A stretch of 63,682 bases of DNA, filler included, from Octopus bimaculoides (GCF_001194135.2; 6 parts of 5 records of this genome joined end to end with filler, not necessarily neighbours in it), one strand, 5' to 3'. Counted from the first letter of the whole stretch, positions 228 through 27,260 are shown. Notes: generated by a model from the sequence alone, not told the origin. Translations and numbers: made by a program.

Positions 228-296
228 TTTAGGGTCTGAGGAGATGTTGTAAAGCTAAGTGCTTTATGGCTGCGAAACCCTGGGTAGCCCTATAAA
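228..296 (+). ncRNA. Type I hammerhead ribozyme with palindromic helix III
   Basis: Stem I TTTAGGGT/GCCCTATAAA. Core CTGAGGA at 236-242. Long stem II (GTAAAGC/GCTTTAT, loop TAAGT, G-C closing pair, two mismatches near the base). GAAA at 274-277. Helix III ACCC-T-GGGT. GUA cleavage triplet, cut after 286. Confidence 0.8.
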
Positions 297-572
297 TCAG
301 CCGTAACTATCTTTATCTAAATATTCTACTGCTCTACAACTTTCGGATTTATGATTTACTGATGATATATGTTACACACACACACACACATCTATATTTG
401 TATAATTATTATTATGTTTTTCTTCTGTTGTATATAGCTGTAAGTCTTCATGTTATTATATATGCATAAATCTTCATCTTTTGTATTTATATAATGTCTT
501 GTTTGTTTCTGTCTCAGTATACATTCACTAGCTTTTTCCCAGTAGCTTAATAACAGCACTGGTGCCTCCAGG

Positions 573-660
573 ATTGAGTGGTCTCACTGATAATGGCGTG
601 AAACTACAATGATATTTTGGTTCATTGACTGATGAGGAAAACTCAGCTGTGAATATTCTG
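573..660 (+). ncRNA. Two decayed hammerhead-like motifs in tandem
   Basis: ATTGAGTGGTCT leader is identical to the HHR at 9305, followed by CTGATAA...GAAA (core mutated). A second CTGATGA (629-635) is followed by GGAAAACTC and a palindromic CAGCTG but lacks a proper GAAA. Confidence 0.5.
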
Positions 661-791
661 TGTATTGTGTATCTGTCTATATTCTCCATCTGTTAAGTTT
701 CTATTTAGTTTCCCATTTGCTCTGCTTTTGTCTAACTTTTCTCTTTGTTGTGTTCTTTTTGTTCAACTCTTAACATATATATGTATGTATA

Positions 792-932
792 TTTTACTCT
801 TTTACTCATTTCAGTCATGTGGCTGCAGTCATGCTGGAGCACCACCATGGAAAATTAATGTTCACATGCTGGGAATGGAACTCTGGACACCTGATTGAAA
901 GCCAGGAATCTTAACCACTAGACTACATGGGA
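792..932 (-). mobile_element. Short SINE: tRNA-Glu(TTC)-derived head plus shared octopus SINE 3' tail
   Basis: 861-932 (-) folds as a cloverleaf: TCCCATG/CATGTGA acceptor, GTCT/AGAT D-stem, CCTGG-CTTTCAA-TCAGG anticodon arm, degenerate T-arm (GTTCCATTC). It is followed by GGTGCTCCAGCATGACTGCAG...TGACTGAAATGAGTAAAAGA, a tail also seen near 9915-9960 and 46490-46545. Confidence 0.7.
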
Positions 933-937
933 AATCG

Positions 938-2007
938 CATCATCATCATCATCATTGTTTAACGTCCGTTTTCTATGCTGGCATGGGTTGGATGGTTCAA
1001 CTGAGGTCCAGGAAGTCAGGAGTCTGCACCAGGTCCCAGTCAGATCTGGCAGTGTTTCTATAGCTGGATGCCCTTCCTAACGCCAACCACTCCAAGAGTG
1101 TAGTGGGTGCTTTTTATGTGCCACCATCACAGGGGCCAGAGAAGGCTGGCAACGACCACGATTGGTTGGTGCTTTTAACGTGCCACTGGCACAGGGATCA
1201 CAACTACAATTACCATTTGATTTTGATGTACTTGACTCAATAGGTCTCCTCAAGCACAGCATGTCAACCTATGATCCAAGGTATTTATGAGTGGGCTGCG
1301 GCTGGTTATGCGAAACTGGTGTAGGATACAGCTGTGAATTCACTTTATTTGCCAGGTCTTCACAGCCACAGTATATCTCCAGAGGTCTCAGTCTTTCGTC
1401 ATTGCCTCTGTGAGGTTTGAAGGTCATACTTGACCACCTCATCCCATGTCTTCCTGGGTCTACCTTTACCTCGGATTCCTTCAACTGTTTGGGAGTGGCA
1501 CTTCTTCACACAGCTCTCCTTATCCATCTGTAGTACATGACCATAGCAGCACAAACATCTCTCTTGCAAGCCACATCTAATGCTTCTTATGTCCAACATT
1601 TCTCTCAGGGTGTTTACACTTTGTTGTGTGTGCACACTGACATTACACATCCAGTGGATCATGCTAGCGCCATTTCTTTCAAGCCTACACATATCCTCAG
1701 CAGTCTTTGCCCATGTTTTACTGCCGTGAAGCATGGCAGTTCGCACACATGCATCGTACAATCTACCTTTCACTCTGAGTGAGAAGCCCTTTGTCACCAG
1801 TAGGGATAGAAGCTTTCTGATCTTTGCCCAGGCTATTCTAATTCTAGTGGTAACAATTTCTGAGCATCCACCCCCACTACAGACTTGGTCACCTAGGTAG
1901 TGGAAGCTATCAACTACTTCTAGTTTCTTCTCCTGGAATGTGATGGAATCTGTTTTCTGAGCATCTGTAGTGTTTATTACCCCTGTGCATCTGTTGCACA
2001 GTAACAA
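938..2007 (-). mobile_element. 5'-truncated RTE-clade LINE (ORF C-terminus, 3'UTR, (ATG)n tail)
   Basis: ORF 1399-2007 reads SFHYLGD...TRIRIAWAK...KGRLYDACVRTAMLHGSKTW...GKGRPRKTW, typical of the RTE post-RT region. The 3'UTR ends in CCAACCCATGCCAGCATAGAAAACGGACGTTAAA plus (ATG)n. Confidence 0.9.
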
Positions 2008-2904
2008 TGATGAAAATAATAATAATACTAGATAAAGAAACTACGATAAGAAAATTAGACTAACACATACATACAATTAATTATAATAACAAGTGCTTTG
2101 AGAATGATCAAAAACATGCAGACAAATACATAACTAAAACCTTAAGACTTAGAAATATGTATAACACACAGAAAACAGCTCTTTAGTATTCATACGTATT
2201 ATGTAGAGCACATTCACTAAAGGGAAAATAACAAAACTAACACAAAACACTATGTTTACTCAAGGCATGTAGAACTGTGCTCAGATGTACAGTGATAATA
2301 AGCAATAAAAATAAGACTATTGCATAATAATAACAATAATAATAATAATAAATCATAAAAACATTTAATTGGAAAATATTTGTATCAAGCATAAAGTACA
2401 AACATACCAATAAAACAACAAAATATAAAGAAAATAGTAATACATGCAACAGCAACGTCAATTACAACAACAGTAATGAAAGTTACACCATACCCTCTGA
2501 CAATAACAAGCCCAAACAATATGCTTACACATCTACACAAATCAACCATCAAAAACTGCACAAAAGAAAAAAGAAAAAGAAAAACCAGAACACAAAATGA
2601 GAACTACATTTCTTCCATTTATGACATAATTTTGACTCCCTTCCATCCATCAGACTCAAAGCAATAGAGAAATCTAAAAACCCAAAACTCCTAAAACATC
2701 TATGTCATTAAAGAGATGCTGCATTTACCAATTTGTAGAACTGCCCATACCAGATCTATCAAATTTCCAAATTTACAATAATCCTGAACAACAAAAGTCA
2801 AATGATATAATAATCATAGACATCTCACCCTATCTTCATGCACTGCCTCAGATAGCCTAGAAATGTTAAACTGGGACACTTAATACTTGCATACTCCTCT
2901 CACA

Positions 2905-3110
2905 ATGTAATAATAGTTTATTTTGGCACAAAATCAGCAATTTTGAGGGACGGGTTTAGTTAATTAAACTGATTCCACTACTTGGCTGGTATTTTATTTT
3001 ATCAATTTTGATGGAGAGAAAGCAAAGTTAACTTATAATGCAAAAAGCCAGAAGAAAAGCATAAGGCATTTTGTCAGATGCTCTAATTTTTCTGCCAATC
3101 TACTATTGCT
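2905..3110 (-). mobile_element. Decayed tRNA-derived SINE copy
   Basis: Degenerate match to the abundant family seen at 40940 and 44021 (GGCAGAA head; TTGCTGATTTTGTGCCAAAATAAAC tail). Confidence 0.5.
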
Positions 3111-3344
3111 ATTTGATATTTTAATAACTGTTCTCAGTGTTTAACTTCATGGCACATTGGAGATCAAAGTAAAAAATACTGGTGCATTTCACACAGGAAG
3201 TTGAAAATAATAAACTGAGAACTCAGAAACCTTGTTATATTAACCATATTAATGTTTAACAAAATTATAAATCACATTTTTCAGGACAATCAAAAATTAA
3301 CATGGATTTTTTTGAAGCCTTAAATAAATTTTTTAATTCTGCAA

Positions 3345-4082
3345 TACATTGACTTCTGACCGAGACCTTTGGAAATATGCTGTGCGTGAGAAGACCCGGC
3401 AAGCCAAGCAAGACCAAAATCCAAGGCCTTGCCATCCCACTTATGCGTAACATCCCTTTTTTTTTTTTTTTTTGTATACTAAACTCCGCCTGCGAAGACC
3501 TGTTGAAGCAAGTGAAATCAAAATCAAACTAAATTTGTAGACTGGCACCCATTCCAACGTCTTCATTGAACACTAAACTCGGCTTGTGAAGACCTGTTGG
3601 GGCAAACGAAAGCGAAATCGTGATGGCACCAGTACCAATAACTCACTAAGAGCACTGTCCGAGCGTGATCGTTGCCAGAGCACCAGCTGCCTGGCTTCGT
3701 GCCGGTGGCACGTAAATAGCACCATTTGAGCGCGACTGTTACCAACGTCGCCTTCCTGGCACTTGTGCCAGTGGCACGTGAAAAGACATTCGAGCAAGTT
3801 CATTGCCAGTCCTGCTGGACTGGCTCCTGTGCAGGTGGCACGTAAAATACACCATTTCGAGCGTGGCCGTTGCCAGTACCCCCTGACCGGCCTTCATGCC
3901 GGTGGCACGTAAAAGCACCCACTACACTCTCTGAGTGGTTGGCGTTAGGAAGGGCATCCAGCTGTAGAAACTGCCAAATCAGATTGGAGCCTGGTGTAGC
4001 CATCTGGTTTCACCAGTCCTCAGTCAAATCGTCCAACCCATGCTAGCATGGAAAGCGGACGTTAAATGATGATGATAATGAT
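3345..4082 (+). mobile_element. RTE LINE 3' fragment (ORF end plus long 3'UTR)
   Basis: Begins with DRDLWKYAVREKTRQAK, homologous to the ORF end of the 938-2007 copy. Ends with CCAACCCATGCTAGCATGGAAAGCGGACGTTAAATGATGATG. Confidence 0.85.
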
Positions 4083-4088
4083 TAAGAC

Positions 4089-4357
4089 CAATGGTTCTCA
4101 ACAATTTTTTGCCTATGGACCCCTTTGATTCCTACTTTACACTACTGGACCTCCTGAACCATTCACTGTGTATAAAATAAATCCTACTACACATTTATAA
4201 TCAAATATTAGGAATTGTATGAGAAATTTAAAATGTTTTGTGTATTGTAGACATATAAACAAGTTATTGCACCTAAATTTTAGCAACAAAATCTTATATG
4301 GACCCCCACGGATTTAGATATTGCTTGTGCTACAGTGCTTAGTCTGAGAACTGATCT
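4089..4357. mobile_element. hAT/Charlie-type MITE, inverted homolog of 13765-13988
   Basis: Left end CAATGGTTCTCAAC; interior is reverse-complementary to 13765-13988; right TIR degenerate (TGAGAACTGATCTG). Confidence 0.6.
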
Positions 4358-7300
4358 GATATAGATTCAGATGACTATATCCAACCACAATTTTACTCAT
4401 GAACCTAACATGACTTCAATGATGAACAATGCTGACACACAAAACAAAGATTTTGGTTCTATTTCACTCAGTCTCTGCTTACAAAATTTACTTGACACCA
4501 TCTTAAGAAACAATACAAAATTCTGGCTTTCAAACTACTTATCAAATCATCAAGCATATGAAGTGAACAAGAATAATGCTTCCCAAATTTGCAATTTCTC
4601 CCATGGAGTACCACAAGAAATTGTTGTGTCAACCTCTTTTTTCAACTTATACCAACATGACGTTCCTACACCTCCCTAAATTATATGCACAGGACCATTT
4701 ACAAATGAAATCACACATTTTTCTTTTTTCTTTTTATTTCGTAACAACTTTATTCACTTCTTGTGCATATTCTATGTACTGTTCATGCACTTTTAGCTAC
4801 TTTTTCTCTTGAGTTGTAGAGCACCTGAGCACTGTGTACAATAAGTTAATTATCATTCTTTTGCTTTGTATTCTCTCCCCATTCTCCAAACATAGCTGCA
4901 CACCTACTCCACCCAATATAAATCATGTTCTGGGCTCACCCTCAATAGACTTAAATTATCACCAACCAAATACAATACCCCCTTTCTAAGTAACAAAAAT
5001 CAAGTACAACCACTCATCAAACTGAACATTACTCACAAAAGACAAAAATATTAAAATGTACAACAATTCTATAATATTCACAACTCTCACATAAAACATA
5101 GTAAAGAAAGTAGTATAGCACACAAACACCTAGAGCAGTTGCAGTGTGTGTGTGTGTGTATATGTATGTGTGTGCACATGCTCGTGCATGCATGCGCACA
5201 AACGTGCGTGCGTGCATGCATGCATGCACACACATACACACACAAACACATGCACAACTACATATGAACTTCATAAAATTTGAACTCAGAATGAAAAGAA
5301 ATAACTAATGCTGGCTGAAAATGAAATCTCTTTCTTCCATGCTTGAAACTGTAACAGTGCCTGTTCTGGTACTGATTTTCTGTATATCACTGGTGAGGAG
5401 GTGAGTTACTGCTACCTCTAGCAGTTGAGTGTCCATCATTGATGAGACAAAGGAATGTTGAAATCATGTGATCTGATGGTCTCAGTGCTGGAGATGGTGG
5501 GGATTTATCTCCCTGCTAGCGATATAAACAAGTGAGCATTTTGGACCAAAAGCCTATATGAGAGTTTCTCTCATGGTATCTACCACAGTAAAGTTTGCTT
5601 TAACAGAACATCTACATTTAAGTGGAAATAAATATGACTTCATGTATAAAACTGTATATCAACAGTTCAACTATAGCCATAACTGGTTTTGAATCAGCTG
5701 AGAGCTGAACTAAGAACTGTCTGGAAGAAAGCCATATTAAACATTTCAGCACAAGAGAAATAACAGCCAAATTTTCTTCAAATCATACACAACAGTTTTA
5801 AATAAGGAAAGGCCATATTGTAGTCTTACAGACCATTAATACCAGGATGGTCATGGCTTGAATACCCTTGAATGTGGACGTTTACAATCAGGGTTGATTT
5901 TGGTTAAACACCACTGTCACCACCACCACCAACAAGAACAACATACATGCATACATACATACACCCGTGTATCTACTGAACTACCATCCTAAACTCAACA
6001 ACATTAGAGAATTTCCCAACCTACGCACATTGCTATTAATATTTTCTTTGATTCTTGTTTAATTAACACTCCAAGAGTTTCCTTAAAATATTTCTCCTGT
6101 AATCTTCCAATTTGATGAAGTCGAAGAACCAACAGACCAAAGTACCATACGCTCACCAATCTTCATATTAATGAGTTCATTTCCACATATTTAAACGATC
6201 CCATTTTCATTTAGTTTTCTTTTTTTTTTTTCAACCTCAATGTTCCATGACATTTTAAAGATTTAATCAATATCTTTGATCACAGTTTCTGTGAAAATTG
6301 TCGTGGCATTATGTGGGAATCTGTAGGTTTCATCCATTTCTGAGTTGCTGGAAATTTAAGCATCATTGCTATAACATCTTTAGATGACCAAACATCAGTT
6401 TTAACAAAAATATTGAATATCTCATTAACTAAATTCATTTTATTTTTCATATTATTCTTAAAAAAAGCTTGTGCTTATGGGTATCTTTTAATATTAATTC
6501 ACTGTTTTATTTGAATTTATTTTTCAATTAAACTTTTATAATTTTACTTTTGTTTGTTTATCTTATCTTTTTTTTTCTAGAAAGATCTGTCTGACTATCT
6601 AATAACATCATATTAAGAAAGTAATATTAAAAAAACAATTACTCGACCCTCAACAGCAAATTATTGTAACGATGAAAGCAAGAAGTTTATTTAGTATGAA
6701 CGTGATACTAATGGTTTCTCTCTCTCTCTCTCTGTTTCTCCCTATTTCTCTCTGCCTCTCCCTCCCTTTCTTCCTCACCTTCATATGTCTCCACAGCTGA
6801 GGTCTGATACACACTATTGTTCACGTGATGAACAATGAGCAAAAACACCAGAGAAAGAAAGTACAAAAGAAAAAAAGAAAGAGAAAGAATGAAACTATTA
6901 CTGCTTGATTTTCCCAAGGCTGCTCCCTGCATGATGAATATATAGTTAAGTACAAGATAACATGCATAAAGTAATGAGTTTCCAACTTCCTTCCAATATA
7001 AAAATAACTCAAAACTACAGCTCTTAGCAAAAGAAAACTTTGTAGTATTAATGATAATTCTTGTCAAAAAAGGTAAAAGAAAGAACTCTGAAATCCAGAT
7101 TGATTAAATGAGGGTTGGTAGTATGAAGTGAAATGTGAATCTGAGGGTGGATACAGTGACAACTGTGGATATATTTCTACATAATAAACTCACCTTCTTA
7201 CTTAAATGTAGTTTTACCAAACCTAAGATGACTGAGAGGGATAAAGGAGCTCTAATAATATAGTCACATGTCTAAAGTTGTTTGTGCACTTCCCAAGACT

Positions 7301-7590
7301 TTAGACCTAGCTCTTCTGCATGCCCTCAGTCAACTTTTAATTCATTTTAACCAATTTAAATTTTAGTGTTTCTTCCCTATCTTTCTTGACCAGAACTAAG
7401 AAATGAGCTAATGATTTGCTTTCTCTTCATTATGAGTGTCATTTTAAAAGTCTATGTGCAATACACATCTCCTTATTAGGGCCTAACTTGGCTAATATTA
7501 TGTATAATACATGCAAGATTACATAACTACTACAAGAGTAGGTAATCTATTATAATCCAATACATTAGCTTTTAATTTCTTATTCTATAT

Positions 7591-7752
7591 AAGATGGCAA
7601 ACTGGCAGAATTGTTAGCACACGGCAAAATACTCAGCAGCATTTTGTTGTGATTTCAAATTCTTTCAAGGTTGACTTTACCTTTCCTACTTTTGGTGTCA
7701 ATAAAATAAGTATCAATTGAGCACAGGGGTTTGATTAAATCAACTTAGCCCT
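7591..7752 (+). mobile_element. tRNA-derived SINE (decayed)
   Basis: GGCAAACTGGCAGAATTGTTAGCAC...GTTGACTTTACCTTTCC...ATAAAATAAGTA; same family as 44021. Confidence 0.75.
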
Positions 7753-7996
7753 TCTGGAATTGCTGGTCTTGTGCCAAAATTTGAAATCAATATTTTATTT
7801 TATAGAAAAAATATTTATGTATAATGATAAAATAATCTTAAATGATAATATATGTAACTTTATTAATGTAGGGTTTTTTTTCTTAATAAAAGTGAGTGGG
7901 GAAAATATTTGCAGCCTCATACCATGTAGTATATACACTTCTAATTTTAATATTGATTTTGTTGAAAAAATAAGCGGGGTAATGCTAGATTTGGAG

Positions 7997-8130
7997 ATCA
8001 TCATCATCATCATCATCATTTAATGGGTGCTAGGACTGAGTCCAGTGTCTGCTTTGTTATGGCTTTTATGCTTGGATAACCATCCTAATGCCAACCACAT
8101 TACTAGGTATACTGGGTACTTTTCTCTTAC
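7997..8130 (-). mobile_element. Decayed RTE-tail-derived fragment
   Basis: (CAT)n followed by CTTGGATAACCATCCTAATGCCAACCAC, homologous to the RTE 3'UTR at about 1065-1090. Confidence 0.55.
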
Positions 8131-8162
8131 CGCAAGCAGTAGTAAGGATTATAACACACAAA

Positions 8163-8328
8163 GTAGGATGTAGGCTTTATAATAGGAGATGAGGACTTGA
8201 AACACAAGACAGGATGTGTGCTTTATGCTACGAGATGAAGGTTTAAAACATAAGGTGGGATGTGGGCTTGATGCTAGGAGATGAGGGTTTGAAGCAAAAG
8301 GTGGGATGTGGGCTTTATACTTAGGGGT
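8163..8328 (+). repeat. ~45-bp minisatellite, about 4 imperfect copies
   Basis: Unit approximately GGATGTGGGCTTTATGCTAGGAGATGAGGGTTTGAAACATAAGGTG. Confidence 0.8.
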
Positions 8329-8399
8329 GCAGAATTTAAAGACTGACTAAATGTCCCTAAGCATTTTATCCATCATGGTAACGATTTGCCAGCTTACTG

Positions 8400-9240
8400 C
8401 CTTTCAATCAATTACTAGTTAATGAAAAGAGGTTACAGTTTGTACCAAAGGGAGATAATTCTTTGAAGCAAGATTTTTCTTTTCTTTAAATAAACTTTTT
8501 AGTTTGTTCATGGTTGTCTATAAAATTTGATGACGGTCATCTTCTTCCTTAATTGTGGATCCTTGAACATAATCTTTTCCCCTTAACACCATGTGCTACC
8601 TTTCTCGATTTAATTAATTTCAGCTTACTGACATATTTCCAAGTTTTTTTGTTTATTTTATAATGGTGATATCACTATCAGTGTTCAACTGCATTTTAAC
8701 ACATGTATTTCTAATTTTCACATGCCCAAATTTCCTCATTGTTATATTATCAATTTCTTCTGATGAAATGCTATTTATTCTTTTTCCTTTGTTCTGATGT
8801 TTTGTCATCTTTGTTCTACAGTGCACCTTTATATGTCCGATATTACCACAACGAAAGCACTCCACTTTTTTAAATAGACAATTTTTCCTCAAGTGTATAC
8901 CTCCACATGCACAACATAGGTTTATTTCCTGATTTTTGTTGTGTCTTTTAGAAAACACTTTATGTCTAATTTGACTATTTCGTACTTGCTTTACTTGGAA
9001 ACAATTTTTATATTCTATTTCTTCTGTGTCTTGTCTTAATTTGACTATCCTTTCACATTATTCTGACACTTACTGTAGGGTTACATCCTGGTTTTGTTCC
9101 AGCTTTGCAAGAATTCTAGCAGTAACTTCTGCCTCCTTTTCAGCAGTAAGCTCCTGTGTAGATATCAAACATTTGAACATATCTGGCGTTAATTCATCCA
9201 ACTTAAATTTCTTGCATTCTCTGTTTACCAGCTAAATCAT
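8400..9240 (-). mobile_element. Ty3/Gypsy (K02A2.6-like) gag-protease relic
   Basis: FKLDELTPDMFKCLI...EVTARILAKLEQ gag region; zinc knuckles CCACGGIHLRKNC and CFRCGNIGHIKVHC; protease motif decayed to MQLNTDSDITII; multiple stop codons. Confidence 0.8.
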
Positions 9241-9304
9241 CCAGTAATATGGCTGACATAAACATAAATACAAATGACAAAGTGAGTCCAGAAAGAGTCG
9301 AACA

Positions 9305-9375
9305 ATTGAGTGGTCTTAACTGATGAGGCAATGGAAATGGTTGAAACTGACGTATCAGTATTAGGAATTCTCAAT
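9305..9375 (+). ncRNA. Type I hammerhead ribozyme with extended, internally looped stem I
   Basis: ATTGAG/CTCAAT and TCTTAA/TTAGGA stem I with TGG/ATT internal loop. CTGATGA at 9320-9326. Imperfect stem II GGCAAT-GGAA-ATGGTT. GAAA at 9343-9346. Helix III ACTGA-CGTA-TCAGT. GUA triplet, cut after 9360. Confidence 0.82.
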
Positions 9376-9504
9376 CAGCACTTTTCGGACAATTATGGTC
9401 CCTGTTAGTGTATATGTTTCCATTCATGTGTGTTAACTACAGCATTAGAGCAATTTAGCCTTTATTTCTAGCAATGTAGTTTCCTAACAGCCTAGTCACA
9501 CTTA

Positions 9505-9505
9505 G

Positions 9506-9576
<71 letters not shown>

Positions 9577-9681
9577 ATATGTATGTATATATATATATAT
9601 ACATATATATATATGTATATATATATATATATGTATGTATATATGTATGTATATATATATATCTATATATATACATATATA

Positions 9682-9720
<39 letters not shown>

Positions 9721-9750
9721 GTATGTATGTATGTATTTACGTACGTGTGT
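9505..9750. repeat. Compound (TA)n/(TATG)n microsatellite
   Basis: Directly visible; it produces the spurious poly-YI ORFs. Confidence 0.95.
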
Positions 9751-9764
9751 GTCATTGTGTCTAT

Positions 9765-9962
9765 GCTTGTCCCACCAACCTTCACTTGACAACCAATGTC
9801 GATGTGTTTACATCCCCTTAAACTTAGTGGTTTGCCAAAAGAGACCAATAGAATAAGTACTGGGCTTACAAAGAATAAATCCCAGGGTTGATTTCTTCAA
9901 GTAAAAACCATTTAAGGTGGTGCTCCAGTATGGCCGCAGACAAATGACTGAAACAGTTAACA
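9765..9962 (+). mobile_element. SINE 3' half (microsatellite-associated octopus SINE tail)
   Basis: CTTGACAACCAATG...GATGTGTTTACATCCCC...AAAAGAGACCAATAGAATAAGTAC...GGTGCTCCAGTATGGCCGCAG...TGACTGAAACAG; inverse homolog at 46490-46690. Confidence 0.75.
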
Positions 9963-10975
9963 TAGTGGCATCACTGAACTATTAAAGCTGTAAGTTAATG
10001 TACAATCAATTCAAACCAATGCGAGTAACAGTGTGGGTAAATAAGCATAACATTTGACAGAATAACCTGAATGCTAAAGGGTCAAAACTGACTACCATGG
10101 TTTGTTCCCCAGCCTTTGACCTTTTGGCATCACTCCCAGTGCAGCAGAGTAGTCGGTGATTAAATGTCAAGGCATATCTTGGCGCCCACTGCTGCTTGGA
10201 GATCTTCTGTCAAGCTAACATGTAACTTCAAAGCATCCAGTTACTATGTGTAAGTATGGGTGGCCATAGCTGGAGCTTTGGTGAGGGAGAAGCTTTGCAC
10301 TGGCAACCTAGTGTGTGTGCACCTACTGTACACACACTGGGTTGCTTCTCATTTCATTACATGGGTTGACCAAGATTAGCCAGCCAGTAGCAGCAAGCTG
10401 TAAGTAAAGATAGTTGCAAGCACCAGATACATGACATTGCCTACACACACACACATGCACAGGCACTCACAGAGGTACACACACACACACATGCACAGCA
10501 CTCGCAGAGGTACACAGACACACACAATCACTCACGTATTTGCTTTAAATGACTTGCATATACACATACATATATGCAGATATGTCATCTCCGTCTCTAT
10601 CACCCACACTTCAAACTCAAATACCCAGTAACAACGTTTACTGTTGCCATTGATAGTTACTACTATTGCATGAGTGTGTGTGTGCATGTGTGTGAGAGTG
10701 AGTCTGTGTGATGTGTGAGTGAGTGAGTGTGTGTGTATATGTGAGTGTATGTTTGTGTGTGTGTGTGTGTGTGTGTGTGATCAGGGATTGCCTTGTTCAA
10801 AAGAATGCAAAACCTGTTAATCAAAGACAAGTGATAACATGTATTCAAAAGAAACCAACTTAAAATCCTGGTTACTCCTGGTAACTCTACAAACACATAC
10901 ATACCCTCCCACACTCTATCTCTCATACATACAATTCACACTACAGACACACATACACACTTCTGTGTGTGTGTG

Positions 10976-11018
<43 letters not shown>

Positions 11019-13040: not shown

Positions 13041-13089
13041 ATAGCTTTCTCAGGCCTTAATAAATGAGTGATATTGATGTTGATAATAT

Positions 13090-14302: not shown

Positions 14303-14333
<31 letters not shown>

Positions 14334-14451: not shown

Positions 14452-14497
<46 letters not shown>

Positions 14498-14597
14498 NNN
14501 NNNNNNNNNNNNNNNNNNNNNNNNNNNNNNNNNNNNNNNNNTTAATTAATTAANNNNNNNNNNNNNNNNNNNNNNNNNNNNNNNNNNNNNNNNNNNN
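14498..14597. other. Artificial scaffold linker N44-TTAATTAATTAA-N44 (also near 21555, 36086, 42939, 53874)
   Basis: The same 12-mer, with stops in all six frames, is centred in 100-bp N gaps five times; assembly artefact. Confidence 0.95.
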
Positions 14598-14641
<44 letters not shown>

Positions 14642-15266
14642 GTATACATGTGTGTGTGTATGTATGTATGTATGTACATATGTATGTATACATGTGAATG
14701 TATACGTACACACACTTGTATGTGTATATATTTAAGAGCGATGAATACAAACATGACGTATGCAAATAATATATTGCTATCATTGTGATTGTTGCTTTGC
14801 GCTGCATTTCATCCGTGTCCTCAGATCAGTGATGCAGACATAATGTTCAGTTTTATCATGGTTGCCCTGACATTGTCAGTGGTGCATCACTGTAATTGGG
14901 TGAGATGTGAACATCTCTTCCAACATGACATATTTCTAATGTTGTACACCATCAGCTATTGATATTTCACACCGCACAACATATTCTCACCGCCATGAAC
15001 CACCTCCCACGCACAAAACGCTGACATATTTTTCCGAGTACATGGTAATGAAAGTAAACATATGTGTATATACATATATATAGAAATATACATATCTATA
15101 TATACATATACACATATACATATATATATATAATAATATAGATTTTATCAAAAGATTAAATGTGGTACTTAAAATGTTTGAGGCACCAGAATTTGGTAGG
15201 ATAAAAACCAAAAACAAAATCGAGAGATTTGGTGAATAAAATTTGAAGTTAAGCAACAAAAATTCA

Positions 15267-15542
15267 ATAGGTTATAGCAGTACGTACGTTTCGTACAAGC
15301 TCCACTTATTCATGTAGTGAGAACACTACAGAAAATGCAATGAAAATGTACTCCTCAGCTGCATAATGGAATTTCATTTTAGAAAGTCATTTTGAAGATG
15401 TTTGCAAACATCTTCAAAATGACTTTCTAATATGAAATTCCATTATGCAGCTTAGGAGTACATTTTCATTGCATTTTCTGTAGTGTTCTCACTACATGAA
15501 TAAGTGGAGCTTGTACGAAACGTACGTACTGCTATAACCTAT
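15267..15542. repeat. 276-bp spacer-less inverted repeat (138-bp arms)
   Basis: Symmetry centre TTTG|CAAA at 15404/15405; only two mismatched pairs found by eye. Confidence 0.95.
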
Positions 15543-15575
15543 ATATATATATATATGTATATATAAATGTATATT

Positions 15576-15645
<70 letters not shown>

Positions 15646-15983: not shown

Positions 15984-16181
15984 TACGAGGGAACGCGGGA
16001 AAGTTCCTGGATTTGGGTAAAAGGAATTGCAGGAGGATCAGTTATTTTTTTTTTTTCAATTTATTCCCTTCTCTGATTCACACTCTTTTTCTAAGCCCTG
16101 TAAAAGAACTCGGAAAGTAAGGTTTCTAACCACACCTTTCATGACACGCTTAAAACCATGAACTTTTAGTACCCCCTTGTA
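15984..16181. mobile_element. Tc1/mariner MITE with TA TSD
   Basis: TA|TACGAGGG...AAAGTTCCTGG at the left end and CCATGAACTTTT...CCCCTTGTA|TA at the right end. Confidence 0.75.
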
Positions 16182-17088: not shown

Positions 17089-17140
<52 letters not shown>

Positions 17141-18929
17141 GTACTTACCTCTCTACCACCCGCTCTCTTTTTCACATACGCACACGAAACAAATATTGAT
17201 ATTTCACGAAACAATCACAGCGTGTTCACAACTTTTCATTAAAATTTTCCTCATTTCTTTTTTCTCAATTTCTGTCAAGCTATATTTGGTGATGCATTTT
17301 GATCATAAGTACCTCTACACTACAATTATCGACTGGATCATTCATTTCAATCAGTCATTTTCTTACTCAGTTTCATTTTTCCTTTATTATTTCCTATTAT
17401 TTTATTATTATCATTTCTCTTAATTTTTGTAATGATTGTCCCTGTAAACGCCCGTTTGAAAAATTCGCTAATCCGGTCTCTGTTAATTTGCTGCACAAAA
17501 AAAGACACACTCAGCTCCTAATAGTCGGGTTTTTGCCTACGCAGGTTGTCTAAGTCTAACAAACAGAACACAATTTCTTTATACTGGTCATCTGAATGCA
17601 CTATCGAGATTTCATCTGGATATACCCACGTTGGTGCTGTCAGAATGTAAGAATCATTTTGATTATGTTTGCGATTCTTTTCGCTAATTTTACTTTGGAT
17701 AGACTTGCACAGTTCAAACGTGTTATATCGTTACAATATTCCACTATCCATTAGAAGTGGGACTTTCTTAGGAAACGCTCCAGAAACATGAAGAAAGCTG
17801 GTTCCGCTGCTCTGCTGGGCCCTAGACGGTTACTAGATTGAAATGTTGACTTCGCTGCTAAACAGGTCCAGCTTTCTCAACTTAATTTCGGGGTCCCAGA
17901 AGATGGCCTATTTCGCAAGATCCCCGAATTTTGAAACAAGAAGGCCTTATGACCTTATGACACCTATAGCTCTGATGATAGTGGTAGTGGTGATAATGAT
18001 AAAGGTATTGATAGTATTGCTAATGTAGGAGATGGTGTCGGTACGTCGTTCTTGGCAGGTATTTGTCGCGTCCGGTTGAGCCTACCAGTATTTTTCGTTG
18101 ACAGTTTTTCCTTCTTTCTTTTTCATTTTTGTTATTTATTGGATTTAGCGTTGGTTGGAAGCATATGAGAATTTCGTGTTGCTTGTCTTGTTCCATTATT
18201 TTCATTTTCATTTACCTTTTCTTTATTATTGCTCCTGCAGTATCTGTTGAGTAGTGGACAGATGACTACAACTCGGATGGGAGGATGCAGAAGTTATCTT
18301 GTCAATGTACGCCTCTAACAATAGAGACACACAGAAAAAATGTTGGCTCGAGGTATACACTTGGTGGCGATTATTTTGGTATAGATATTGTGTTTTGACA
18401 TCTCGGTTGTTACTTCGTCCAAATATTATGTTCATTTCGTTGGTGCTACTGTTGTTGCTGCTTCCATATCCTCTGCTGCCGTTGGAAGGCTTGTCATTAT
18501 TGCAGATCTTACCTTGTTACATTTGATTATATTTCAAAAAATGCTATTTATGTCGTAGCTGCTATTGTAGCTCCCTTCTTCCCCTGCTGTTACCTCTGTT
18601 ACTCCTTTTCTTGAAGAACACGAGTAATCTCGGTCATCTTCCCACAAAATTATTCGTTTTTCCATCCTATCTGACAAGGAACTGATATCTGTGATCTTTG
18701 GCAGATGCTTAGGTTTCTCATCCCGTTCTCTTCAATTCCAGCAGAGTTAGCTAAAAACGTCTAATTCCTGTGACATCATCTATGATATTATATTTGTGCC
18801 ATTCTTCCCAAGAAGTGGGTAGCCACCGGAAGCTCTAATACAGACGACCAAATATTAAACTGAGGCTGAAGTACAATACACACACAACCAAAACAACCAC
18901 TACAACAACAACGACAGTAACGGCAATAA

Positions 18930-19132
18930 TCCTTTCTACTATAGGTGCAAGGCCTGAATTTTTGGAGTAGGGGTATAGTCGATTACATGTATCCCAGTGC
19001 TCAACTAGTACTTAATTTATTGACTCTGAAAGGCCGAAAGAAATAGTCCACCTCAGAGGAATTTGAACTCAGATCGTAAAGACCAACGAAATGCTACCCG
19101 GTGTGGTAACTATTCTGCCAGCTCGCCGCCTT
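18930..19132 (-). mobile_element. tRNA-derived SINE
   Basis: On + reads GGAATTTGAACTCAGA...TTCTGCCAGCTCGCCGCCTT; on - it begins AAGGCGGCGAGCTGGCAGAA. Confidence 0.85.
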
Positions 19133-19151
19133 AATAATGATGATGATGATG

Positions 19152-19204
<53 letters not shown>

Positions 19205-19208
<4 letters not shown>

Positions 19209-19990
19209 GCATTTCTAACCCCACCTGTATTCTTATGGATCTTTTCTTTTGTCACTCTCATTATATTTGTTCTTCTTAACATCAACACCCACATTTTCTG
19301 CGACAAGAATACTTGCTGCCTTGATAAAAATATTTGTTTCTGTGATGTTTTTTTTTATTCTGACGTATTTCAGAATTACATTCACATTTTTTGTTCCTTG
19401 GTTCAGTTTCCACCGATCAACATTTTCAAGGCTGCAAATTATGTCGCTATCGTTCTCCTATAGACTTGCTTTTATTCTGTCATAGCTTGCCTTTTGCCCA
19501 TCTGTCATGTCACCATTAGTTTTATTGTCTTCTTCCAGACCATCCATATGTCTCTCATGAGCACGCTATCACCTTTCCTTCGCTGTGGTTTATTACTGAT
19601 TTCACATCTGTTCTTTGCTATGAGACTACTTTAATCAGTAGAAACAGGATTTCATCGTTTCACTTGCTGCTGTTTTCCAATGCCCGTCTTTTGATAGCTT
19701 CGAGCTCTACTTCTGTGAACCAACGATTTTTTCTTATTGCTCTAGCATGATCACATAATCTCTGTTCTGTGAGTTGAAACAATCTTCTTTCTCTCCATTG
19801 ATCATGCATACTTTGTCGTTATCTCCTAATATGAACACCATTTTCGCCTACGGGTTTGCTCAGATAATAACACTCCATGACCACAGCATTGATCTTTTTT
19901 TGTACCATCTACGTGTGCTGGTTTCTTGCTGGATAAGGATAGGGAGGTGTCGGACCAGGATCTCTGAGCATGCCGAGTGTAAAACACTGT
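19205..19990 (-). mobile_element. R4/Dong-clade LINE, N-terminal ORF relic bounded by (TAA)n
   Basis: NAVVMECYYLSKP...[27 protein letters not shown] and NVDRWKLNQGTKNVNVILKY...ITETNIFIKAASILVAE match the R4/Dong N-terminus as I recall it; stop codons present. Confidence 0.75.
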
Positions 19991-20261
19991 CACATTGAAG
20001 GGCTTCAGTTTCAATACCATCTTTATTCGCAATATTTTATTTTTTCATTGTCAATCATATGAGGTTGCGATTTTGTGGTTGCGCACTTACCAGTGTTTTC
20101 TTTTGACACCATCACTAGATGTATCATCAATTTAAGCATAGGGAGATTCCAACTGCTTCCTTTCATTATTATTATTATCATCACTGAAATGATTAGTTTC
20201 ATTTTTCACTACAATTTGTCAACGTTAATATTTCCTCTGATCTGACACGAGTTTTGGCTAA

Positions 20262-20332
<71 letters not shown>

Positions 20333-20646
20333 ATATTCTTTCATGCTTTCGAGGTCGATAAATTAAGTACCAGTCAAGTACTGTGGTCAATGNNNNNNNN
20401 NNNNNNNNNNNNNNNNNNNNNNNNNNNNNNNNNNNNNNNNNNNNNNNNNNNNNNNNNNNNNNNNNNNNNNNNNNNNNNNNNNNNNNNNNNNNNNNNNNNN
20501 NNNNNNNNNNNNNNNNNNNNNNNNNNNNNNNNNNNNNNNNNNNNNNNNNNNNNNNNNNNNNNNNNNNNNNNNNNNNNNNNNNNNNNNNNNNNNNNNNNNN
20601 NNNNNNNNNNNNNNNNNNNNNNNNNNNNNNNNNNNNNNNNNNNNNN

Positions 20647-20684
<38 letters not shown>

Positions 20685-21761
20685 ATTATTATTATTATTA
20701 TTATCATCATTATTATTATTGCAATATTAACATCGACTCAAAAATTTTTGAGTAAGGAAACATTTTGCAGACATAATGGCAGTAAAAGTATATTGTCTCA
20801 GAATTACATTTAACGGAGGAGAAATTGAATATATTATTAAATGGATGTAAAATGGAAGCGAAAAAATTAACCTGTAAGAGAGAATGAGTAAAGAAATAAT
20901 GCTTTTATATCAAAATGAATGTTATAGAATCGTGAAGAAATAAGAAAACAAGCAAAATGGCTAAGACAAAGAAATTTTCACAATTCGATTTTCATTCTTA
21001 ATCTATTTCACTTCAGATAGAGATGCAACGTAAAACATATATCATTATATGTACTTACTTGTCCTACCCGAAATGTATATGTATATGGACACACCCACAT
21101 GCAGATATTCGTGTATGCATATGTGTGTGCGTGCTTGTGTATGCGTGTTTGTGGGCGTTTGTGTATATGCACATACATACACGCATACATATATTTGTGT
21201 GTATCTCTCTATACTTATAACCATGTATATATTCACATAAATGTATCTATACATATACACAGATATTAACACATGCATTTAAGTATATACACGAATGCAT
21301 GTTCATGAATACATATATATGAAGAATAGGAATATACCAGATTTAAAGTTTCATTTACTATGTTGCAATATTTACAAAAAATCGATTAAGGGAAAATTTA
21401 TTATAGAATTAGTACTTGAATTAGAACCTGTGAATCACTAAAATCTATCTATCTATATATCTACTTATCTATCTATCTATTTTTTTTATCTATCTAACAA
21501 CCTACCTACCNNNNNNNNNNNNNNNNNNNNNNNNNNNNNNNNNNNNNNNNNNNNTTAATTAATTAANNNNNNNNNNNNNNNNNNNNNNNNNNNNNNNNNN
21601 NNNNNNNNNNTTAAACATTCACTTGAACAAAACTGTACAAATACAAATATATGGTACCCTAGGCATAACACCTACATGAACTTCTAACTTGTTGTATCTT
21701 GAGGTCTCTGGGTGAGACTTGGATCCAACTTGTACAAATGCAAAACAAAAGTCAAACATAA

Positions 21762-21835
<74 letters not shown>

Positions 21836-21840
21836 TGATA

Positions 21841-21879
<39 letters not shown>

Positions 21880-22415
21880 CCTGTGAATTTGCGTGTGTAA
21901 ACTGGGAATGCATACAATGAGTTTCTCTGCCCTAGGTGTACGGAAAACACTCGGCGAGAAATGGAAGAAAATTTGAAGAAAAAAGAAAAAAAAAGACAAC
22001 ATAATAATGATAATAATAATTTTATGTATAAATAAATATAGAATACACACATATATACACATACATACATACATACATATATTATGTTATATCATACTAA
22101 TCCGGGAACAGGGCTCAATGCTTATGACATTTATAAATCATCTCAGAAAGTGGGAATATGACGACTGATGCTCAGCCTGAACATTAGTATCTGCAGGGAA
22201 AACGTGGGCGAAGTGGGAACGAGGGTGATGTAGGGGCAGTTACTTGGTCTTGTCTGAATGCTTGTAACAAACTGGATCTTTCAGTGGTGCCAAACCTGAA
22301 AACAAAGGGTATATTAACTAGATTCTTTCTTTGTAACTATAGCTCTCGGTCAATAGATATATCTCAGCAGAGGGGTATATGTATACATGTATATGTACGT
22401 GTGCGTGTATGTATG

Positions 22416-22448
<33 letters not shown>

Positions 22449-24008
22449 NNNNNNNNNNTGGTTCTTCCCACGAACACAAATTAAATTGTTTTCGTGGAGG
22501 GTATATATTGAGCATCTTTCCAGCTTGAAAAATGAAGTTCCTTTTATTCACAGTTTCTAATGCTCCTATAGCAGCTGCTGTTGTTGTTGTTGTTGCTGCT
22601 GCAGCTGCTGCTGTTGTTCTTCTTTCTTAATCTTCCTACGGATAACGCTTGTTTTATAGTCGATTCTTACGCAATACACACACATACACATGTATGGATG
22701 TATACATACGCGCGCTCACACACACACACACACACACATACGTGCGCGCGTATGTCCACTATTGCCACATCATTATATATATAATAATCTACCATCCTTG
22801 CCATAACTTTTGATACACGCTACCTTGTGACAAGCTTTGTAAATTCATACACACCCTCTTTCACACACGCGCACACATCTACAAAGAGAAAGTTATAGAA
22901 AATGAGCACGCGTGTGTTCGTTGCATGCATGCATGTATGCATATATGTATGCATATATGTATGCATGTATGCATATATGTATGCTTATATGTATGCATGT
23001 ATGTATGTATGTATGCATGTATATATGCACGTATGTATCTATGTGTGTGTCATTCATTGTGAATGTATTTTGGTCAAATATAATTTGCATATGAATGTAT
23101 CTGAGATGTTTGTGTATAAAGAACTAGTACCCTCTATGATTATCCCCTTCAATCTCCGTCTGATCGGTGTTCTAAAAATATATTTTTTAAAAAATATTTT
23201 CTTTAATTTTCATTAATTACAGATAGTTTATTCTGCTCGCTGACGATTTTATCTGAATTTGAGCTTCTGACAAATTTCACTGTCTATTTCTGTTTACACA
23301 GTTAAAAGACAGAGGAAGATTGTTTCAACACTTTCATGTTAATGAGTTAAACACTGGCCTAATTCGACCAGCTTCAGATAATTTTCAACTAAACTACAGA
23401 GAGAAGTTATGAGAAACGAAATCTAGAAATCTTGTCTGTAGAATTTCTTAGTCATATATATCACTTCAGAATTTATCGTGATTCTGAGCACTAAATTCCA
23501 GTTCTGTTGTGGAAGGGTTCACAAGATTCTCTTCTCAATCACCGTTGGCAAGACAGAAACAACGAAAGTCTTTATTTATTTATTATTTCTAAGAAAGAGA
23601 CTGATACAACTAATTTAATAGATGTTGCGTTATACACAAACATAGCTTGTGTAAAATCATTTCTAAGCTTCTTTGCCTTTCATTTGGTTTCAAATCCCGC
23701 TGAGTTCAACGTCACCGTTCATTTTTTAGAAATCGATAAAATATAATGAGTCAAATACTGAGGACAGTGGTATTGGCTAGCCTTCTTCCTTTCAAAGTTG
23801 TTAGCTATATGTCTAAATTAGAAGACATTATCATTCAACTCAAATTTCGGTCCATAATTTGGATTGAAAATTATGGAAAGTATTGTGACTTTGTATATAT
23901 CCATATTTCTATATACAATATCGCAATACTTGACATTATTCTTTAAACCCAGGTCTTTATTCTATCAGTCACTTTTGCCAAACCGCTGAACATACCTACA
24001 CCGGTGGT

Positions 24009-24101
<93 letters not shown>

Positions 24102-24315
24102 GCACGCATGCACACATATTTTTTGAGTTTGCCATGAGCAATTGTTTTCTAATAAAACAAGCTTCCACCACATCATTTGAGATAAAAAGGACAGATCCTA
24201 TACACTATAGTTCTTTCATGCAGTCTTTCCTGGACATATTGTAGTAATAGTTTGCTAACTGGAATTTCAACATTAACAACAGGGTATGTATGTATGTATG
24301 TATGTATGTATGTGT

Positions 24316-24701
24316 GGAGGTGCAATGGCCCAGTGGTTAGGGCAGCGGACTTGCGGTCATTGGATCGCGGTTTCGATTCCCAGGCCGGGTGTTGTGAGTG
24401 TTAATTGAGCGAAAACACCTAAAAGCTCCACGAGGCTCCGGCAGGGGATGGTGGCGAACCCTGTTGTACTCTTTCACCCCAACTTTCTCTCACTCTTACT
24501 TCCTGTTTCTGTTGTGCCTGTAATTCAAAGGGTCAGCCTTGTCACACTGTGTCACGCTGAATATCCCCGAGAACTACGTTAAGGGTACACGTGTCTGTGG
24601 AGTGCTCAGCCACTTGCACGTTAATTTCACAAGCAGGCTGTTCCGTTAATCGGATCAACTGGAACCCTCGTCGTCGTAAGCGATGGAGTGCCAACAAACA
24701 A
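24316..24701 (+). mobile_element. Near full-length tRNA-headed SINE (probably tRNA-Arg-like octopus family)
   Basis: A box TGGCCCAGTGG, B box GGTTTCGATTCC, body and tail; flanked by (TATG)n on both sides. Confidence 0.88.
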
Positions 24702-25053
24702 TGTATGTATGTATGTATGTATGTATGTATGTATGTATGTATGTATGTATGTGCGTGTTTGTATGTATGTATATGTGCAGATTTGAATGTTTTCTTTTAT
24801 GTATGTCTTCTCATGCATATACTTTCATATCAATGCTTTCATATCTTCTCATGCCTGTACTTTCATATCTACGCTCTGGAAAGTTTTAACAGATTTTTAT
24901 AGTTCCAGTGATGGATTGGATCTGTATGTGTGTGCAGTTTTCTGCTTTGTATCTTGACTTTAAGCCATTCTAGTAAAATTAATGATCGTGTTCAGTTTAG
25001 TGTTGTTTACATTTAGTGATGACTCATAAGCCAATGACATGTCATGATACTGA

Positions 25054-25620
25054 ATGCCCAATACTCCATGTGATCTTAACGAGCGAGTTTTGTCAGCTTA
25101 CAAGGACATACGAAAATGTGTTTTATTTCAACGAAAAAAAGAAAAGAATGTAGTTAAGAAAGATCCTTCAATTAAACAAATTGTCAAGATTGTAACAGAA
25201 AAGATAATTTTTCTTTGGCAAAAGGTATCCATCCCTTGTGTTGCGATTGAGTCAGTTAAACCAAAAATCTTAAACTTTTATCTAAAGAACCAAGCATTAC
25301 TAAAATACGTGAAAAATAGAAATAATGTGCCATCGTTTCAAACAAAGTTTAATGTGTGTAAAAACAATGCAACAAAAGATTTATTTGACATTTCCTGTTG
25401 CAAGTGAAACTCCTTTAAAACTGCTGTTGTAGTAGAGACAAAAAAGTACCACAGAGAGAACAAGATTTTTTACAGGTTCAACGGACAAATCGAAAAATGA
25501 TCATTGGAGGAATAGATCAAGCAGTATCTAAACAGAACGTTCAGAGGTTGATTAGAAAGAATCGGCCAGATCACAGTCGCCCTTCTACATCAGCAAAGGA
25601 TTCTGAATTGTTAATTATTT
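25054..25620 (+). pseudogene. Unclassified DNA-transposon-like ORF N-terminus
   Basis: IIFLWQKVSIP...LFDISCCK*...CCC...KVPQREQDFLQVQRTNRKMIIGGID resembles a Cys-rich N-terminus I associate with invertebrate DNA transposases; superfamily not established. Confidence 0.5.
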
Positions 25621-26744
25621 TTATCATCAAAATGTGTCAAGAATCAAAAATTGGTTTACACGTTATTTCATTTTAATGTGTGTGTAATCTGGACCTAAAG
25701 AAAACAAAGTCGAAAAGTCTATTTATTTCACATAATTTTGAAATTTCAAGTGCATAGCGGAGCTTAAAGATTTAAATTTTAGAGCTTAAGAGTTTATCAC
25801 TCTTATTTTTAAAACAAATTGCAAAAGAAAATCAATTCGTAACAATGAATGTAAAAATAAAATGAGGAATGGCAAACGTGTTATAAATTGATTTTTCGCT
25901 CATTATTTAAAATTTTCAAGTGGGCTGCGTAGCCTGAAGATGTAAATTTAAGAACTTCAGATTTTAGCACAGTTGTTTCTAATGGATTTCACAATAAAAA
26001 ATATATTCTTAAAAGCATATTTCCAAAATCTGTGTAAAAGTACCTTTATTTTTGCTCCACCCTGTTACTGAAATTCCAATGAAAGAGCTCTAAATCTAGG
26101 TTAGAAACCGACTCTTTCTCCACCGACAAGAAATCTAGAAATAAAACTAAGTAACATAGACACACATATATACAGATGTATCTATGTAGGTGATGGGGGG
26201 TCATATATTATCACTTTAGAGGCTTGTGTTGATAAAGAACCAATGAGATGAAGAATTTAAATAGAGATAGATTACATCAAGTATAAAAGGTTAAAATATA
26301 ACGACTTTTGATAACTTTTCGAACTTTGCGGATCATGAAATGCCGTTATAAAATCCTTTAGGACAATATGTCTGTTGATAACGTATTATAAACAGTAAAA
26401 TAAAATATTTTAAAGTGATTTTAAAATGGTTTTGAAATGATATTAAAACCATTTTTTCGTTTCAGTTCAGTGACATAGATAAATAAAGTCTATAAGATGA
26501 CTGCAGTTACAACCATAATTATTTTCAACTATGCTCAGGGGCAGCTATCTAGCTAGTTAGGACATGGTTTACTCTTGTACACTAATGTTATCTTTAAATC
26601 ACAGAAAACCTAAAGTTATTCTGTCTAAACGAAGTAATGATATATTTATTTCATCCTTATTCCATTTCTCTTGCTGATTCAAGTCATACTTGTGCAGCTT
26701 ATCAGACAAACACACGTTTTTATGTCTCTTCAACTTTCAATGTT

Positions 26745-26986
26745 TAGGTGTACAACTGTGCTTCCCAACTATATAGTTCCGGGTTCAGTCCCACGGTGTC
26801 GCACCTTGGACAGCTTTCTTCAACTATAACCGGGGCCTATCAAAGCCTTGTGTGTCGATTTAATAGACGGAAAGAAGCCTGTCACGTGTGTGTGTGTGTG
26901 TGTATGTGTGTGTGTGTGTGCAAGTGTGTATGTGTGTGTGTGTTTGTGTGTGCGCACACTGGCGTGTATATGTGTTTATACATCTA

Positions 26987-27026
<40 letters not shown>

Positions 27027-27075
27027 AATATTAAAAAAAAAAATAACGTTGACCACTAACGTGGACAATTAATGT
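26745..27075 (+). mobile_element. tRNA-headed SINE with internal microsatellite
   Basis: GCTTCCCAAC...GGGTTCAGTCCCAC...CACCTTGG...AAAGCCTTGTG...AGACGGAAAGAAGCC followed by (GT)n/(ATCT)n; same family as 46490 and 61275. Confidence 0.75.
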
Positions 27076-27194
27076 GCTAGAAATAGATCACATCTTGTGT
27101 CTATTAAGACCTAAATTGTTCTCAACATGAAATATAGCAGCATACCAAAAACGTGAGCGGGCAAGACATTTAAAATCACCTAAAAAGGCATTCT

Positions 27195-27260
27195 CAAACA
27201 GGGACCGGTTTCGGATTTAACAAATCTTACCATTTGTCCATTCCTCTTCAGCCTGATTTG
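27195..27260 (-). ncRNA. Type I hammerhead ribozyme with palindromic helix III (PLE type)
   Basis: Minus strand reads CAAATCAGG-CTGAAGA-GGA(ATGG)ACAAAT-GGTAAG-ATTTGT(TAAA)TCC-GAAA-CCGG-TC-CCTGTTTG. All core bases are present; GUC triplet; cut between + positions 27203 and 27202. Confidence 0.88.

Follow-up and report, generated by a model that had tools for sequence, protein, structure and literature searches.

Hammerhead ribozyme motifs recur along a stretch of Octopus bimaculoides DNA (GCF_001194135.2; 63,682 nucleotides [nt], filler included, in which six parts of five records are joined end to end), and they raise the question of which elements left them there and whether they still cut RNA in place. 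The whole of this stretch is called the window here. In it we found four intact and several decayed motifs, which are very probably 3' end pieces, that is, fragments of the pseudo-long terminal repeats (pLTRs), of several families of Penelope-like elements (PLEs), predicted to be mostly inactive where they stand. An earlier note on this DNA had claimed three motifs with a complete core (228-296 and 9305-9375 on the plus strand and 27195-27260 on the minus strand), and all three were present at those coordinates.

Type I hammerheads with an intact CUGANGA/GAAA/NUH core, helices I to III and an open helix I were located at 236+, 9320+, 15358- and 27251-, the third of which the earlier note had overlooked. 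Two further motifs, both absent from that note, each had a single core change: 5439+ (C3 to U) and 15451+ (G5 to U). The motif M1 (228-296, plus strand; core 236-242, 31-nt domain II) has as helix III the odd palindrome ACCCUGGGU, with the triplet GUA and a predicted cut after 286, and it sits in an insert of about 150 bp flanked by microsatellites. In M3 (27195-27260, minus strand; core 27251-27245, 32-nt domain II), helix III is the palindrome ACCGGU, the triplet is GUC and the cut is predicted after 27203; the motif is oriented away from a PLE relic 490 nt further along. The main copy of M4 lies on the minus strand of 15141-15542 (core 15358-15352), with a 59-nt domain II, the perfect palindrome ACGUACGU as helix III and a predicted cut after 15281. 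Alignments compared with shuffles gave no sequence kinship among M1, M3 and M4.

The motifs at 573, 5439 and 9320 belong to one family, here called family A, whose members share a bipartite helix I and their flanks (alignment score of 53 versus 21 ± 3). A9320 (9305-9375, plus strand) has an intact core, the bipartite helix I, the triplet GUA and a predicted cut after 9360; its helix III, with 4 bp and a tetraloop beyond A15.1-U16.1, is of the monomer type. Its helix II is weak, since the first two pairs are G-U (10.1-11.1 is G-U), and in its minimum free energy (MFE) structure the core is paired with helix III. A5439 (5397-5548, plus strand, bounds that are the ends of a head-to-tail joint in one DNA contig) carries its hammerhead at about 5426-5485, with the C3-to-U core, a near-palindromic 10-nt helix III, the triplet AUC and a predicted cut after 5473. 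Between A9320 and A5439, all six proximal helix I pairs were kept, three of them changed on both sides, and three helix III pairs were also changed on both sides; because the register of helix I is fixed by the core, the helix I changes lean towards the structure. A decayed relative at 573-660 (plus strand) retains the bipartite helix I, with G8 of the core changed to A and helix II partly lost; none of 60 shuffles aligned as well with it as did 5439, and 1 of 60 aligned as well as 9320.

Two other decayed hammerheads were found near PLE coding relics. The one at 30052-30094 (minus strand, core at 30087) has the palindromic helix III ACAUGU and lies antisense to a Neptune/Nematis-like relic, about 570 to 610 nt downstream of it. 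The one at 53516-53638 (plus strand) has an intact core at 53527, an unpaired domain II of 85 nt, the triplet GUA, helix III ACACGUGU and a helix I of 3 bp, and it follows a Hydra-clade relic in sense at a distance of about 340 nt. Thus, the decayed relatives that had been noted before at 573-660, 30051-30096 and 53521-53640 stood. The one noted at 7-21, at the window edge, was dropped: it has a core and GAAA, but there is no space for helix II, and helices I and III are unpairable. Three weaker observations belong beside these motifs. A possible badly decayed hammerhead at 39040-39090 (plus strand; GAAA, a short helix, UA and half of helix II), which passes no scan, lies about 100 nt behind the Hydra-clade relic at 38485-38952 and ahead of a (TA)n run. 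A 29-nt inverted repeat (51637-51665 and 53495-53523, 76%) abuts the 53527 relic with its right arm and may be what is left of an inverted pLTR copy. Finally, 57077-57122 (minus strand) was ranked fourth by the foreign PLE hammerhead model described below (13 bits, E = 0.31) and is possibly another relic.

Motif frequency exceeded that of shuffled sequence. A descriptor scan of both strands returned 5 type I sites, namely the four intact motifs and 62697+, whereas 60 local shuffles averaged 0.15 to 0.25 and never gave more than 1; the strictest setting returned 3 versus 0.017. When one core mismatch was allowed at a score of at least 22, there were 7 sites versus 0.025 (40 shuffles), which added 5439+, 15451+ and 28788-. 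When the scan asked for a palindromic helix III, 8 rows at 7 sites were returned, versus 0.56 in 200 shuffles; they included 30087-, 53527+ and 34534+. Bare cores numbered 36 versus 21.0 ± 4.6, a count that only the highest of 200 shuffles attained. The sites at 62697+ (weak and AT-rich), 28788- (inside a PLE open reading frame [ORF]) and 34534+ stand in relics that are AT-rich or coding, and we took them as chance matches; they remain in the scan counts quoted. All six motif sites tested were within 300 nt of a microsatellite, versus 38% of background positions, the threshold having been set post hoc. The Rfam hammerhead models gave no match in local scans of M1/573, 9320 and 27251 and none among the best-scoring 150 of 253 rows for the whole window; since these models miss the motifs described here, standard annotation undercounts ribozyme motifs in this genome.

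What would have left such motifs behind, and would they cut? In the reading that we favor, solo motifs would be left by 5'-truncated PLE insertions; within a parent element, helix III, being short and palindromic, would pair with that of another copy in a tandem transcript, which would make cleavage dependent on a dimer. PLE hammerheads with a short palindromic helix III are reported to be poor cutters as single copies and have been proposed to pair with a tandem neighbor (PMC4209133, PMC6765202). Helix III is a perfect short palindrome in M3, M4, 30087- and 53527+, an odd one in M1 and a near one in A5439. The modelled gain of the dimer over two monomers was 11 to 20 kcal/mol for M1, M3, M4 and A5439 and 3 kcal/mol for A9320, and the hammerhead dimer of M3 reached the MFE. 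The monomeric hammerhead fold of the window motifs lay 3.8 to 8.5 kcal/mol above the MFE; foreign PLE hammerheads with a helix III of 6 to 8 nt had a gap of 6.5 to 9.5 kcal/mol, in a comparison that leaves out six four-base helix III controls, whose energies are unreliable because the constraint is too tight. A partner of the same family on the same strand was found nearby for none of the motifs. Being mostly dimer dependent in the models and lacking a partner in cis, the motifs are likely inert, and we infer both that each solo motif originated in a PLE and that the lone copies do not cut read-through RNA. A9320, the sole copy with a monomer-type helix III, could cut alone, yet its helix II is weak.

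The insertion that holds M4 appears to record such an event. A palindrome of 276 bp (15267-15542) has arms of 138 nt with two differences, one of which is the G5-to-U change in the plus-strand copy: the segment 15405-15542 is an inverted copy (2 differences in 138 bp) of 15267-15404 and carries the hammerhead core 15451-15457. The insertion is flanked by TA-rich microsatellites, and the arm on the 15141 side alone is extended, by about 125 nt. PLEs have been described with inverted copies that are 5'-truncated, with tails on one side and with insertion into (TA)n (PMC8557442), and 15141-15542 showed an inverted 5'-truncated copy, a one-sided tail and a microsatellite target. It is probably a young insertion that records PLE 5' inversion. 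Dual hammerheads on opposite strands, 100 to 700 bp apart, are likewise known (PMC4209133), and one foreign locus (L090) had two head-to-head hammerhead pairs with arms of 105 and 143 nt, the same geometry as that of the 138-nt arms in the window. Modelled as a single hairpin, the palindrome reached -245.7 kcal/mol; the pair would thus fold into a 138-bp hairpin in which the ribozyme is buried.

Relatives of the Neptune/Nematis-like relic carry comparable motifs. In the best 80 of 114 metagenome loci, some of which are near-duplicates, 28 had type I hammerheads (26 in sense and 2 in antisense), versus 0 to 2 per 80 in 10 shuffles. Helix III was a perfect palindrome in all 28, a result that the 19 four-base cases could not fail to give but that carries information in the longer ones (9 of 9), and ACCGGU, the helix III of M3, occurred twice. 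A covariance model made from seven of these foreign motifs, with rough E values, placed M3 at the head of its matches in the whole window (30.8 bits, E = 1e-6), followed by the 30052 relic with E = 0.007 and then by A5439 with E = 0.097. Hammerheads were also present in 9 of 15 Hydra-type loci, with 18 matches, 15 of which had a helix III of 9 to 10 nt like those of M1 and A5439 (a count made without a shuffle control). Within the window, 53527+ stands in sense behind a Hydra-clade relic, M3 and 30087- stand in antisense beside the Neptune/Nematis-like relic, and M1, M4 and family A are solo. Viral contigs contained no PLE relatives, no matches to the M1 pattern and 4 matches to the family A pattern, none with a hammerhead fold. 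As an observation apart, loci L085 to L094 are near-complete Hydra-clade PLEs with hammerheads in bacterial assembly contigs, most likely animal host DNA contamination.

Several results weigh against a PLE origin of every motif. No intact motif was linked by sequence to a PLE ORF, and A9320 does not have the palindromic helix III. The seven-motif model gave M1, M4 and A9320 E values of 0.9 to 4.7, and a model from six Hydra motifs had no significant match in the window (best M4, E = 0.82, with M1 and family A absent). The domain II lengths of M1, M3 and M4 (31, 32 and 59 nt) reach or exceed the upper limits seen in the foreign loci (7 to 31 and 11 to 24 nt). The flanks of M3 did not clearly resemble the DNA that follows the neighboring PLE (shuffles scored as well in 4 and in 21 of 100 cases), and foreign pLTRs gave no alignment with the window motifs besides microsatellite matches. 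To these is added the head-to-tail joint of A5439, for which a retrozyme would account as readily as would a partial tandem of pLTRs.

That last point leads to the alternative that survives best, in which family A at least is a non-autonomous retrozyme without long terminal repeats (non-LTR) of about 150 nt or more, present in tandem elsewhere in the genome; its transcripts would cleave themselves to monomers, circularise and be mobilised by PLE proteins, and the window copies would be solo monomers. In its fullest form, family A would be an octopod retrozyme lineage with a head-to-tail unit of about 150 nt and a helix III lengthened for monomer cutting. We consider this unlikely. Speaking for it are the joint itself (5548 to 5397, head to tail, in one DNA contig of organism A at a depth of 304), the bipartite helix I with its six kept proximal pairs and the both-side changes in helices I and III, and a molluscan precedent in mussel (PMC7229834). 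The joint was seen in one contig of one of four runs, with unknown letters between, and in none of the RNA-run rows listed; the helix III of A5439 matches the Hydra pLTR layout; and the window has no tandem hammerhead array. Of the earlier proposal of a PLE/retrozyme system, the points that found support were a PLE origin, several architectures, a palindromic helix III that predicts dimer cleavage and multi-copy families.

Sequencing reads bear on both copy number and expression. Twenty runs from nine studies and two organisms cover 222-9480 or part of it, and four of them were aligned at 80% likeness; the copy results therefore concern that stretch, namely, M1, 573, 5439 and the tail of 9320. 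All were multi-copy in organisms A and B (M1 at 270 and 287, 573 at 605, 5439 at 5401 and the 9320 tail at 9420), the summed contig depth at these positions, which is a rough index of multiplicity and not a copy number, being about 50 to 800 times the single-copy depth in organism A and 40 to 400 times in organism B. At position 287, about 95% of the depth bears the letter with which the basal pair of helix I is of the Watson-Crick type. Both RNA and DNA runs also contained joints between 3006-3063 and 5278-5299, which suggests two halves or copies of a small repeat upstream of A5439.

The RNA signal itself was no different from that of ordinary repeats. In X21, a raw RNA run of unstranded cDNA of which about 6% was read, tens of reads deep and from a kind of library that may miss small circles, the RNA/DNA ratio at the motif places was 0.5 to 5.1 per 1,000, within that of seven of the eight neighboring repeat places (1.5 to 5.8); the eighth, a LINE place, had 31. 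The highest ratio of the places compared was at position 1546, in a LINE-like fragment. Every X21 read bore the family letter and not that of the window copy (25 of 25 at 270, 22 of 22 at 287, 11 of 11 at 605 and 21 of 21 at 5401), so these reads come from other copies or alleles. No piled-up read ends were seen in X21 at any place among the rows listed, at this low depth. Absent ends are weak evidence here, since the Anolis Poseidon PAc hammerhead, whose cleavage depended on protein and could be lost without preventing insertion in vitro, was reported without RNA-seq ends at its cut site (PMC11167929). In X14, an assembly guessed to be of RNA (60 Mb), the summed depth was 195 at 5401 versus 3 to 52 at the other motif places, which would suit a retrozyme, but X14 may contain DNA. 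If family A were an octopod retrozyme, small circular RNAs would be expected and read-through host transcripts would be cut at hundreds of dispersed sites; if it were expressed, cephalopods would join the animals with ribozyme-made circular RNAs. No cephalopod retrozyme was found in the literature searched, outside of which lie subscription papers and bioRxiv supplements.

A second alternative, which we hold to be very improbable, is host domestication, in which one or more copies would cut a long intron or untranslated region in cis to regulate a gene. The persistence of four intact cores would agree with it, as would exact pieces in X14 across 1939-6405 (depth 4 to 6, one of them spanning A5439), which hint at read-through transcription and may be DNA. 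A Pfam scan of 295 of 445 filtered frames, which missed the PLE fragments as well, revealed no host exon. Every copy deviates from its family or has weakened pairs, as expected of neutral decay; the X21 reads carry the family letters and, coming from an unstranded run, hold no information on transcript strand; and neither pile-ups of ends (at low depth) nor dimer partners in cis were seen. With no host exon in the frames scanned, no end pile-ups at this depth, no partner in cis, no tandem array in the window and the predicted burial of the ribozyme in the palindrome, the earlier suggestion that the motifs could cleave host intronic RNA or yield circular RNA has so far not found support. The third alternative, that AT-rich repetitive DNA produced the motifs by chance, is almost certainly wrong: Rfam finds none of them in the scans above, the monomer fold is not the MFE and weak sites do arise by chance, but foreign PLE hammerheads share the monomer gap, family A has compensatory pairs, and the shuffle counts already contradict this reading for the four intact motifs.

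Set against known systems, pLTR hammerheads of metazoan PLEs resemble those of the window in being type I with a short palindromic helix III, in forming several unrelated families per genome, in being mostly solo copies with some opposite-strand dual motifs and in their predicted dimer cleavage (PMC4209133); low in vitro activity was reported for them there (Cervera and De la Pena 2014). In contrast to the minimal form of that paper, the window motifs have a helix III of 2 to 4 bp, and M1, M3 and M4 have a domain II of 31 to 59 nt. Hydra-clade hammerheads share with M1, A5439, M4 and 53527 a helix III that continues for 3 bp beyond A15.1-U16.1 and ends in a loop of 0 to 2 nt, and with the window a place near the 3' end, (TA)n targets and, in Penelope-13_HM, an inverted copy that is 5'-truncated and has its hammerhead in antisense (PMC8557442). 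Animal non-LTR retrozymes, such as those of Mytilus, are noncoding, type I and multi-copy, like the window motifs, and have been argued to derive from PLE pLTRs, with solo monomers recognised (PMC7229834; Li et al., bioRxiv 10.64898/2026.07.22.740005). What defines them is an arrangement of units in tandem together with plentiful circular RNA, whereas the window has no array, a single joint was found elsewhere and the X21 signal was not high. The Poseidon PAc hammerhead, which lies in a pLTR, is like those of the window in lacking RNA-seq ends at the cut, but it comes from an intact element (PMC11167929).

Whether such cephalopod motifs were already catalogued had been left open by the earlier note, and the answer is partial. 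File S2 of Craig et al. 2021 (PMC8557442) tabulates the hammerhead of Hydra-1_Obim, from Octopus bimaculoides, beside some 25 further motifs from the Hydra clade that have this layout too. Compared by eye, the Hydra-1_Obim motif is unlike every window motif in sequence, and the layout of the 53527 relic is similar to that of Hydra-1_cRog in the same file. The giant squid genome has 235 Rfam hammerhead_1 matches (PMC6962438), Penelope is an old, expanded family in coleoids (PMC8967140), and the available text of a paper on O. vulgaris repeats names PLE families without mentioning ribozymes (PMC13282606). Neither a dedicated study of octopus or cephalopod hammerheads nor these particular families were found in the literature searched; Repbase may list octopus motifs. 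The window adds several uncatalogued families to a well-described class, the PLE pLTR hammerheads, and its significance is modest; it also provides a natural panel for helix III length as a switch between dimer and monomer cleavage.

The coding relics were mapped with fetched homologs, and the earlier estimate of at least four PLE relics came to exactly four. The first is a broken ORF at 27741-29484 (plus strand) with a reverse transcriptase (RT) and a GIY-YIG domain, assigned as Neptune/Nematis-like because its homologs carry DKG and a CX4CxxC linker. The other three matched a Hydra-clade profile, which had no match in the reversed window: 38485-38952 (plus strand; linker and endonuclease), 44838-45990 (minus strand; RT end, thumb and endonuclease) and 52644-53186 (plus strand; thumb or C-terminal RT region). 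The clade is defined by a CxCX5C linker (PMC8557442), and in 50 long homologs out of 120 listed, this linker was present in 48, RWK in 47 and DKT in 43. The best relative of 52644-53186 was an Octopus bimaculoides protein (54% identity), in keeping with an octopus source though no proof of it; with this fragment, at 52.9 kb, phmmer returned 24 relatives, another homolog search returned nothing, and Atlas gave weak matches only. A minus-strand RT relic picked out by eye at 51.8 to 52.5 kb was supported by neither tblastn nor the profile and was discarded.

Other repeats of the window were noted in passing. A Gag zinc-knuckle and protease-like relic at 8656-9245 (minus strand; Pfam zf-CCHC, E = 0.0056), which we take to be Gypsy, ends just ahead of the A9320 element and was multi-copy in organisms A and B. 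A tRNA-like Rfam match at 861-932 (minus strand, 46.3 bits) heads a very high-copy repeat, probably a tRNA-derived short interspersed element. Two long frames at 34443-36040 (plus strand), of which one matches the Spin-doc zinc finger (E = 1.8e-6), presumably represent a hAT/SPIN transposase relic, and 1399-2040 and 31772-32786 (minus strand), which had no Pfam match, are presumably C-terminal RT fragments of LINE-like elements. A 46-bp tandem repeat at 8156-8321 (3.6 copies) contains no hammerhead. Five gaps of 44 N, 12 bases and 44 N (14498-14597, 21511-21610, 36042-36141, 42895-42994 and 53830-53929) are probably an assembly or masking mark; the 12 bases at 53874-53885 are a TTAA repeat.

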